This document shows, piece after piece, positions 8,929 through 24,196 of a stretch of 32,000 nt of DNA. Below the pieces are notes generated by a model, which saw only the letters and a program-made list of their open reading frames with translations, was not told the origin of the DNA and made no database searches. The translations under genes and the position numbers were made by a program. This stretch comes from Staphylothermus marinus F1. GTDB lineage: Archaea > Thermoproteota > Thermoprotei_A > Sulfolobales > Desulfurococcaceae. The DNA lies in contig NC_009033.1 of NCBI RefSeq assembly GCF_000015945.1, positions 210,001 through 242,000 on the forward strand, in the 5' to 3' direction. Within the stretch, counting starts at the first letter, position 1. Every line of letters begins with the position of its first letter.

Positions 8929-9369
8929 CGATCACCATAGATCACGTAAATTATACTATATATCTCTTTTTCAATACAAGAAATAAAAAGATTCCATCTA
9001 ATTTATAAACATTAAATCAATAATTAATTTAGTAAATATTAAAATTAAAAATATCCATTAGAAATTAGAAAAAGATAATAATATAATGAATTTAATACAG
9101 AAAATTTTTCTAGCTAACAAATATTTCATTGTATTATTTCATATTCGAATTGCTGTTACAAGCTTAACATTCTCCTCAATAATACTTCATATTTATATGT
9201 AAACAAGATAGTTAAAGAGTTAATAAGTGACCTACTCTAATGCATAATAGTATTTTACAACGGTAACGATCATCTATGGATTATAGAAAAGATTATTTCT
9301 AACAAGTTAGATAGAGACTATTTGCTTATTTGGATATTATGGTTGTTTTGATGGATTGGCGGGGTTCGT

Positions 9370-9377
9370 TTTATAAA
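9370..9377 (+). promoter_or_regulatory. TATA-like box (TTTATAAA) conserved in both repeat copies, ~30 nt upstream of the conserved GC-rich core
   Basis: The same octamer occurs at the equivalent position of copy 2 (24136-24143). Its spacing is compatible with an archaeal promoter firing into the conserved core. Confidence 0.35.
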
Positions 9378-9408
9378 TCCTCACTAATATAATGGTTAAT
9401 GATTTGGG

Positions 9409-9555
9409 AAATGCGGATGAAGGGCTCAAAGTGGTCTATGTGGAGCCCCGATAGCCCCCACGATGAAGGGATGAAGCCCCAACCCAAGAGGGGGAAGCCC
9501 GTGCAGATATCCAAAATTTCCAAAACAACCAAAAAAATAAAGCACGGGCAACCAC
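9409..9555 (+). ncRNA. Candidate structured non-coding RNA (unclassified), copy 1
   Basis: A GC-rich island in AT-rich intergenic DNA. Stems are gggctc(9422-9427)/gagccc(9443-9448) and gcccgtgc(9497-9504)/gcacgggc(9542-9549). GATGAAG occurs three times (9416, 9462, 9470). A T5 run at 9577-9582 follows. Ends are approximate. Confidence 0.35.
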
Positions 9556-10205
9556 GAAATTAAACAGCATCCTAATGTTTTTGTTGAAAACTATTTGTTA
9601 CCTAGCAGATTCAGTATAAATAATTTCAAGCATAATATTTCATCTCAACCAGTATTGATACACTTTCTAGGACTTACTGAGGAATACGGTTATAACAATG
9701 ATTGTTGGAACAGGTTGGTCTAGCTGATAGAATTCACCATAAACCAACAGAGAGTTGCGATTGCTGTTGCAACTGTTGCTTTAGCAAATAGTCCCCTGGC
9801 ACTATTGACGGATAAGCTCACAGCAGAGCTTGACATCGAGAATGCTTTAAAAATAACTAAATTATATGCAGACCTAAGCGTTAAGCATGAAAAAACAATT
9901 ATTGTTTCACACGTGATCCAAGAATAGCTGTTAGGGCTTCTCATATATTTAGGCTTGAGGGTGAAAGAATAATTGAAGTATATAAGCCATCAGATCTAGG
10001 TGTAATGTATGGAAGTAGAGGGAAAGAGGAGGACTTAGCAGAAATAATTAAGAATAAGCTTACCTCAATCAAAAAAGTTGTGGAGGAGCTCGTGAAGAAG
10101 CTTAGGGATGGCGAGATAGGTATGGAAGAATTTGATCTTAGATATAATAAGTTAAAGCATCAAATGAAAGCTTTAAAGGAACTATTAAGGAGTCTTGAAC
10201 ACTGA
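9556..10205 (+). pseudogene. ABC transporter ATP-binding protein remnant (5'-truncated, at least 2 frameshifts, LSGG signature lost)
   Basis: Three frames together give ...VFVENYLLPS... / LEQVGLADRIHHKPTE / QQRVAIAVATVALANSPLALLTDKLTAELD...KTIIVSHVIQE* / AVRASHIFRLEGERIIEV...LEH*. This matches the order Q-loop region, pre-signature, QQRVAIA, Walker B (catalytic E replaced by K) and H-loop of ABC ATPases. There is no Walker A. The annotated 66-aa ORF 10005-10205 is its C-terminal tail. Confidence 0.6.
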
Positions 10206-23997: not shown

Positions 23998-24117
23998 GTG
24001 GTTGCCCGTGCTTTATTGTTTGCAGGCTCCCCCTTTTGGGTCGGGTTTTTCACTCTCTTCATTGAGAGGCTATTGGGGCTCCACATAGACCACTTTTGAG
24101 CCCTTCATCTGCATTTT
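23998..24117 (-). ncRNA. Candidate structured non-coding RNA (unclassified), copy 2
   Basis: On the minus strand the gggctc/gagccc stem is conserved, ctctc-aatgaa-gagag forms a hairpin, and gcc-tgc/gca(cg)ggc forms a stem with only a 10-nt loop. Ends are approximate. Confidence 0.3.
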
Positions 24118-24135
24118 ACAAACAATTATAAAGTG

Positions 24136-24143
24136 TTTATAAA
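24136..24143 (-). promoter_or_regulatory. TATA-like box (palindromic TTTATAAA) of repeat copy 2
   Basis: The same octamer as at 9370-9377, located 18 nt upstream (minus strand) of the conserved core. Confidence 0.3.
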
Positions 24144-24196
24144 GCGAAAACATAAACACTACAAAACAACCATAGTATCCAAATAAGCAAATAGTC

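Follow-up and report, generated by a model that had tools for sequence, protein, structure and literature searches.

The question raised by this stretch of 32,000 nucleotides from the genome of Staphylothermus marinus F1 (NC_009033.1, positions 210,001 to 242,000; the window) is whether a sharply GC-rich island in an AT-rich gap between genes, which recurs on the opposite strand, is a structured RNA gene in its own right or part of something else. The original prediction had taken the two copies for a new, undescribed family of free-standing structured RNA genes with their own promoter. The repeat itself, its modular conservation, a promoter-like box and several hairpins all proved to be real, and an RNA product is plausible; a resident gene, by contrast, it is not, and the family is not undescribed, since a putative MITE (a miniature transposable element with inverted repeats) of ~260 nt in 14 copies was reported from this genome in 2009 (PMC2678158). 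The element is a known, species-restricted miniature transposon and not a new cellular RNA family. Our preferred overall explanation, which we regard as probable, is a non-autonomous transposon of the MITE or PATE (palindrome-associated transposable element) type, the GC-rich part of which resembles an omega RNA.

The two copies lie on opposite strands, as had been noticed (9316-9555 on the plus and 24196-23998 on the minus strand), and the coordinates initially proposed are at most 3 nt off the true insertion boundaries (table 1). The copies are 77% identical over 184 nt (E=1.6e-30), with a separate 24-nt match at the 3' end, and copy 2 has a 29-nt internal deletion relative to copy 1. The GC content is 0.62 at 9413-9504, as against 0.22 in the DNA before the element (8929-9318) and 0.30 behind it (9556-9700). 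Conservation comes in blocks: a 35-nt block at the left end (GACTATTTGCTTATTTGGATA[T/C]TATGGTTGTTTTG; 34/35 identical, 9316-9350 versus 24196-24162), the promoter-like box TTTATAAA, a core differing by 2 substitutions and 1 indel, and a 3' block (AATAAAGCACGGGCAACCAC) with 20/20 identical positions. The stem GGGCTC/GAGCCC is the same in both copies (9422-9427/9443-9448 and 24103-24098/24081-24076), and the 8-bp stem GCCCGTGC/GCACGGGC, which closes a 37-nt loop in copy 1, is retained in shorter form in copy 2 (GCCTGC/GCACGGGC, with a 10-nt loop). Compensatory change had also been proposed for the hairpins between these blocks (CCC.../GGG in copy 1, CTCTC.../GAGAG in copy 2); the hairpins exist, and one pair is altered on both sides between the copies; the proposed compensation depends on two sequences only. 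There is no conserved open reading frame (ORF) in the element, the reading frames of the two copies disagreeing with each other.

Copy 1 shows that the element is an insertion. The surrounding 1.07-kb intergenic gap is, contrary to the initial description, no plain spacer and contains remnants of genes for an ATP-binding cassette (ABC) permease and an ABC ATPase. When the permease of relatives is aligned by tblastn, amino acids 16-59 fall on 9187-9318 and amino acids 59-104 on 9553-9690, with the reading frame unchanged across the element, and the corresponding site in S. hellenicus is empty (AGA GAT|GAA GTT AAA). Copy 1 thus went in cleanly at codon 59 in the permease gene, now a pseudogene. 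Copy 2 is situated between the stop codon of the AglB gene (TAA, 24199-24197) plus GAC and the sequence ATAATGTATCC; S. hellenicus has a 74-nt spacer without the element between AglB and its homologue of Smar_0222 (AGCTAAAAC|ATAATTAAACATGATGTATCC; locus L038), and two more distant relatives (L004, L006) have equally empty sites with spacers of 75-83 nt. Overall, five relatives, S. hellenicus among them, have empty sites, and S. hellenicus and three more distant relatives lack the element at both positions. Insertion into the two unrelated sites thus came after S. marinus and S. hellenicus had split. Its absence from the syntenic sites of relatives, and the position of one copy within a coding sequence, mark the element as a mobile insertion rather than a resident RNA gene, and we regard its mobility as very probable indeed. 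Short-read contigs of the same strain terminate inside both copies. A segmental duplication with extended flank homology was considered and rejected: homology between the copies past their common boundaries is not significant, with 33/300 shuffles attaining the flank score. Both copies have the same orientation as their host gene (copy 1 in the permease gene on the plus strand, copy 2 behind AglB on the minus strand), which with n=2 may be chance.

At the junctions, the occupied sites carry AC on both sides, whereas the empty site has a single AC (as inferred for F1) or AT/AC (S. hellenicus). The sequence common to both copies begins slightly outside the insertion, at 9315/9316 (AGAC), and these bases are flank or crossover sequence. 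To judge from the sequence, the AC-AC junctions could represent either a crossover dinucleotide or a target duplication of 2 bp. The very termini carry no inverted repeat: the terminal 20 nt match at 7/20 positions, and the local score does not exceed that of shuffles (p=0.34-0.9). An imperfect inverted repeat lies subterminally in copy 1 (table 1), and its 3' arm falls in the 29-nt segment lost from copy 2, where it is mostly gone. A hairpin in the DNA of the left end (GGATT/AATCC versus AGTGTTTAT/ATAAACACT, with two compensatory pairs by eye) was rejected, its folding being inconsistent in three variants. Beyond the dinucleotide, the right flanks of the two targets have AATTAAACA in common, at equal offset after AC (GAAATTAAACAG versus ATAATTAAACAT; window 9556-9567 compared with the DNA downstream of AglB in S. 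hellenicus, L038 2929-2949). This 9-nt run follows AC at only 2/4668 AC sites in Staphylothermus DNA, namely at site 1 and at the S. hellenicus site, which suggests a target specificity extending past the dinucleotide. As a separate observation, F1 lacks 10 nt (TAAACATGAT) that are present in S. hellenicus immediately downstream of the insertion point of copy 2 (23997-23993 versus L038 2929-2948).

A second S. marinus-like strain provides a third variant. Its AglB site is occupied by an element that is ~75-77% identical to either F1 copy, although the AglB gene itself is ~98% identical to that of F1; most of this gene is near-identical, but its last ~120 nt have 6 substitutions, and the motifs TTATGGTTGTT and TATGGTTGTT are duplicated in this copy of the element. 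The pattern suggests ectopic conversion, a tract of recombination or a new insertion at that site. The element sequences from this strain (L002 6409-6547, L003 4277-4402) bring the total to 2 full and 2 partial sequences. Stem 1, i.e. GGGCTC/GAGCCC with its loop, is invariant across copy 1, copy 2 and L002 apart from a 1-nt indel and a single base of the loop; the loop is as conserved as the stem in the three variants, whereas identity among them drops to ~75% in the left part of the element.

In S. marinus F1, 14 copies of a ~260-nt repeat have been described as 'likely to be MITEs' (Anderson et al. 2009, BMC Genomics 10:145; PMC2678158). These repeats resemble the DNA upstream of Smar_0083, Smar_0767, Smar_1150 and Smar_1546, have inverted repeats and disrupt two genes, and the same genome has five IS607-family elements, four of which consist of a single ORF of the TnpB type (PMC2678158). 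Our element agrees with what is given there in genome, in similar length and multiple copies (237 nt in full and 196 nt in the deleted variant, both in one 32-kb window) and in the disruption of an ORF, and copy 1 has a candidate counterpart of the inverted repeats in its imperfect subterminal repeat; moreover, its left part looks like a promoter, as expected from the likeness to DNA upstream of TnpB-only ORFs. Given this agreement in genome, size, repeats and behaviour, the element, compared by description, almost certainly belongs to the family of 2009. The disruption of the permease, an RNA product and the AC junctions are not mentioned in the 2009 paper. From a classical MITE the element differs in having no inverted repeats at its very termini; the AC repeated at its junctions may be a target site duplication of 2 bp.

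What is new, and plausible, is the idea of a TnpB omega RNA-like scaffold in the GC-rich half, with a promoter retained from the left end of a transposon to drive it. The left third of the element would be a former left end still carrying the tnpB promoter; the TATA-like boxes at 9370-9393, 29-52 nt upstream of stem 1, form a putative internal promoter. The GC-rich 106-134 nt up to the right boundary would be the scaffold, consisting of stem 1, short hairpins and the terminal hairpin, and its last five bases (ACCAC) might pair with GTGGT in the loop of stem 1 to form a pseudoknot. This module (GGGCTC...GCACGGGCAACCAC) reaches exactly to the right boundary, and runs of T are found 18-27 nt past it (in copy 2, TTTT at 23980-23977). 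A transcript begun at the internal promoter would continue past the boundary into the flank, yielding an orphan guide RNA; if transcription is outward, the 22-27 nt of right flank up to the T run would serve as the guide. Such an RNA could then be used by a TnpB protein, of which the genome encodes five at other loci, while the element would move by means of a transposase supplied in trans, with the AC-AC junctions arising either from a 2-bp crossover by a serine recombinase, like GG in IS607, or from a 2-bp target duplication. By analogy with known omega RNAs, we think it quite possible, at slightly less than an even chance, that the GC-rich half is such a scaffold. The fuller proposal, i.e. 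a promoter-driven orphan guide-RNA gene for an archaeal TnpB combined with site-specific insertion at AC followed by a NNAATTAAACA-like motif, is rather unlikely to hold in all its parts.

Several observations weigh against the preferred explanation, most of them against its omega RNA-like scaffold. There is no TnpB or transposase gene within the window, and a six-frame protein query showed no overlap with TnpB. The predicted RNA folds are no better than those of shuffled sequences (z-scores of the minimum free energy, -0.83 and -1.87 for the two copies), and a 5-nt complement such as GTGGT/ACCAC occurs by chance with a probability of 0.013 in random and 0.06 in shuffled loops. Stems and pseudoknot are invariant, and therefore show no covariation, the sequences being 2 full and 2 partial ones. 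The middle of the element consists of two small independent hairpins instead of the nested stem 2/3 of the ISDra2 omega RNA. At E<=10, the Rfam search gave nothing for copy 1 and three unrelated weak matches for copy 2 (TCV_Pr, nqrA-Marinomonas and mir-122), and there was no match to the right-end RNA families that Rfam contains (HgcC, IS605-orfB, RAGATH-18 and others). In addition, the identity with the published MITE is drawn from the description of that family, and the 2009 paper mentions similarity upstream of tnpB genes only, not downstream; if the GC-rich part is indeed not shared with transposon right ends, the omega RNA reading becomes weaker.

The alternatives have to be weighed against the same evidence. 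With its insertions equally accounted for at both sites, the element could be the same MITE with a GC-rich core that has no function as RNA, its hairpins and repeats acting at the level of DNA only (transposase binding, end recognition) and its TATA boxes being leftovers. The terminal hairpin, which stands 6 nt inside the terminus like those of IS200/IS605 right ends, indeed folds well as DNA (z=-3.8), and the weak RNA folding scores, the lack of a match in Rfam and the lack of covariation would all be expected. The threefold likeness to the layout of an omega RNA (complementarity between loop and 3' end, position of the hairpin, length) would then have to be a coincidence, the strict conservation of the stem-1 loop in three variants with a left part only ~75% identical would be unexplained, and no matching left-end hairpin was found, as a Y1 transposase would need; we therefore regard this alternative as unlikely, although a serious one. 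Far less probable is a free-standing family of small structured RNA genes, two paralogues with their own promoter that perhaps bind L7Ae via kink-turns (K-turns). The GC-rich island, the promoter-like box, the conserved hairpin and GATGAAG, which does occur three times in copy 1 as had been pointed out, would suit such genes. Both copies, however, are clean insertions missing from the sister species, one of them interrupting a coding sequence, and they have abrupt common boundaries and a conserved AT-rich 35-nt block upstream of the promoter. The K-turn or L7Ae proposal fails because neither the GA motifs nor their partner bases are conserved (AATGAAG and GTGAAAA in copy 2, GATAAAG in the second strain, i.e. 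L002; partner CGA changed to CAA in copy 2). The absence of a box C/D pair and of tRNA was seen correctly at the outset: there is no CUGA box in the element, ACA is not conserved, the window contains no tRNA or tmRNA, and a search of the whole window against Rfam at gathering score gave no match, to C/D, H/ACA or any other family, which agrees with the view that no known RNA class is recognizable. Scans with the core GTGGTCTRTGTGGAGCCCC gave only chance matches, in Microvirga and Methanobacterium genes, among JGI metagenomes and the other 185,579 species representatives; apart from these, the 19-nt core is missing from all of the latter, S. hellenicus included. An archaeal bulge-helix-bulge intron was also rejected, as the cofolded junctions of both copies form no such motif.

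An element programmed for its target in the manner of a bridge RNA, with an encoded segment that pairs with the insertion site and directs a recombinase, would make sense of the AATTAAACA run that the targets have in common at equal offset after AC. Just upstream of the TATA box, a variable segment rich in T (9365-9372; 24155-24147) does complement each copy's own junction if G-U pairs are allowed (TTCGTTTT to GAGAC|GAA in copy 1, TTATGTTTT to AAGAC|ATAA in copy 2). In such AT-rich DNA this complementarity is not significant on its own and may be chance (p~0.06 each with G-U pairs, 0.16-0.25 without), the second-strain copy at the same site has another sequence in that segment, and no IS110-type recombinase is known in F1, for which the 2009 paper lists only IS607-family elements; this mechanism is thus highly improbable. 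Hardly credible at all is a small protein gene or coding remnant, such as a 'KVVYVEP' fragment resembling TnpB or ZnuA, or the ORF of 54 aa located at 9399-9563. The ORF is present in copy 1, and a 19-mer matches a Methanobacterium binding-protein gene encoding VVYVEPQ; yet a 1-nt indel breaks the frame in copy 2, the common 3' block is read in different frames, and no frame has a match in Pfam, PDB or 5.8 billion proteins. The stretch 'ADEGLKVVYVEPR', which presumably resembles a TnpB motif, was rejected as a TnpB coding remnant for want of any Pfam or PDB match, and a ZnuA-like pseudogene was rejected as well, its tblastn match to Methanobacterium being at chance level (E=0.66). The Methanobacterium match extends over 19-23 nt of the core in a periplasmic-binding-protein gene encoding ...ITVVYVEPQYDP, and the 19-mer occurs in seven Microvirga genomes; these matches are chance, conserved within those genera. 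A search for other copies by a chimeric six-frame protein query against called ORFs gave no match at E<=10, viral contigs had 0 matches to the core and 4 chance matches to the 3' block, and blastn against plasmids and phages returned nothing relevant.

Table 1. Coordinates of the element copies, their parts and the gene remnants around copy 1 (positions within the window).
Feature	Position	Strand	Details
Permease remnant upstream of copy 1	9187-9318	+	aa 16-59; tblastn E=1.4e-7
Left-end block	9316-9350	+	contains motifs TTTGGATAT and TTATGGTTGTTTTG
Copy 1, insertion	9319-9555	+	237 nt (TATTTGC...CAACCAC); tblastn with relatives' permease, S. hellenicus empty site
Imperfect subterminal inverted repeat, copy 1	9323-9350 with 9521-9545		TGC-TTATTT...TGGTTGTTTTG versus reverse complement; p~0.1
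TATA-like boxes, copy 1	9370-9377; 9386-9393	+	TTTATAAA; AATATAAT
Stem 1	9422-9448	+	6 bp GGGCTC/GAGCCC, 15-nt loop including GTGGT (9431-9435)
Variable middle, copy 1	9457-9492	+	CCC-ACGATGAA-GGG (9457-9470); CCC-AAGA-GGG (9483-9492)
Terminal hairpin, copy 1	9497-9549	+	GCCCGTGC / 37-nt A-rich loop / GCACGGGC; 3' arm at -14 to -7 from boundary
Terminal ACCAC	9551-9555	+	last 5 nt of element; complements GTGGT of stem-1 loop; AC as at left junction
Right flank to first T5 run	9556-9582	+	T5 run at 9578-9582; native permease coding sequence
Permease remnant downstream of copy 1	9556-9690	+	aa 60-104; tblastn
ABC ATPase pseudogene remnant	9702-10202	+	aa 151-322, with stops and frameshifts
Copy 2, insertion	23998-24193	-	196 nt (TATTTGC...CAACCAC); empty sites in S. 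hellenicus and 2 relatives, alignment of copies
TATA-like boxes, copy 2	24143-24136; 24132-24125	-	TTTATAAA; TTTATAAT
Variable middle, copy 2	24068-24053; 24040-24031	-	CTCTC-AATGAA-GAGAG; CCC-AAAA-GGG
Terminal hairpin, copy 2	24027-24004	-	GCCTGC / 10 nt / GCACGGGC

The genes surrounding the copies are housekeeping genes (AglB/STT3, Hel308, MoeA, OTCase, an MscS-like channel and a radical SAM protein) and tie the window closely to S. marinus F1. A 186-aa ORF matches Smar_0222 exactly in a cluster look-up, AglB is identical to Smar_0223 in 801/801 residues, the channel to Smar_0207 in 460/461 (the sole mismatch being the first residue), and Hel308 is exactly the S. marinus RefSeq protein WP_052833774.1. 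In S. hellenicus and 2 relatives (loci L035, L036, L039 and L040), the operon between Hel308 and the channel is intact and encodes an ABC ATPase of 322 aa together with an FtsX-type permease of 1006-1031 aa. Relative to these, ~3.2 kb have been deleted in the window between the permease and ATPase remnants, which is an event separate from the insertion. A 66-aa ORF at ~10005-10205, called as a gene in one assembly, is only the C-terminus of the ATPase. About 500 nt past the end of the window (equivalent to ~32513), the same-strain short-read contig with AglB stops, while the contig of the second strain runs 5 kb further; in F1, a further copy of the repeat or an insertion sequence may be located shortly beyond the window.

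As a repeat, this element is ordinary; in F1 it accounts for the GC-rich island, for two breaks in the assemblies and for an ABC transporter operon that is dead. More generally, screens for RNAs by GC-rich islands in AT-rich hyperthermophiles also catch transposon ends, of which HgcC is an earlier case, i.e. a transposon-end RNA from such a screen (PMC4615843). If the omega RNA reading is true, the element would represent a compact, promoter-fused guide-RNA scaffold in an organism growing near 90 C, with five candidate TnpB partners; no report linking Staphylothermus to TnpB was found in the literature searched. If insertion at AC plus a NNAATTAAACA-like motif is also true, which IS605 and IS607 leave unexplained, it would point to an undescribed targeting step of TnpB-associated elements in Crenarchaeota.

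Among known systems, the closest in layout is the omega RNA of ISDra2, which has a 116-nt scaffold with a 6-bp stem 1 and a 19-nt loop (Nakagawa et al. 2023; PMC10097598). In this RNA, loop positions -105 to -103 pair with -5 to -3, stem 4 reaches to about -7 and the right boundary marks the start of the guide (PMC10097598). Our element likewise has a candidate scaffold of 134 nt (copy 1) or 106 nt (copy 2) that abuts the right boundary, a 6-bp stem 1 with a 15-16-nt loop in which GTGGT complements the terminal ACCAC (-5 to -1), a last hairpin with its 3' arm at -14 to -7 and a loop that tolerates changes in length, and a flank that starts at the boundary. In contrast to ISDra2, however, it shares no sequence similarity, has no adjacent tnpB and is known from DNA sequence alone. 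At the level of the whole element, the likeness is to PATEs, i.e. derivatives of IS200/IS605/IS1341 reduced to left and right ends (in Haloquadratum, Halobacterium VNG_R0052 and Geobacillus), which are protein-less and encode omega RNA or transcripts similar to sense overlapping transcript RNAs (sotRNAs). PATEs 'often encode omega RNAs', which serve TnpB in trans (PMC10055086), expression of PATE RNAs is known from archaea, and the family HgcC from a GC screen bears a right-end-like tetraloop motif (PMC4615843). Just as in PATEs, there is no ORF and no terminal inverted repeat, a putative left end is joined to a right end that is probably structured, the right part is rich in GC and closes with a hairpin at the boundary, the host has TnpB genes, and there is an archaeal precedent for expression as RNA. 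Unlike PATEs, the element has no likeness in sequence or in Rfam to HgcC or other right-end RNAs and no matching left-end hairpin; its parent is classed as IS607-like, not IS605-like, and a strong TATA box stands directly upstream of the scaffold.

This leads to IS607 itself, which has no terminal inverted repeats and causes no target duplication, has subterminal repeats and carries the same dinucleotide (GG) at its ends and target (Chen et al. 2018; PMC6188088). The element from Staphylothermus, too, has no terminal inverted repeats, has short subterminal repeats and shows the same dinucleotide at its junctions and in the empty target. It differs in that this dinucleotide is AC, not GG, that its two targets have the longer motif AATTAAACA in common and that F1 reportedly has a single TnpA, a truncated one. 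The AC-AC junctions together with the common target motif give small hints about the movement of TnpB-only elements in a genome where just this TnpA has been reported.

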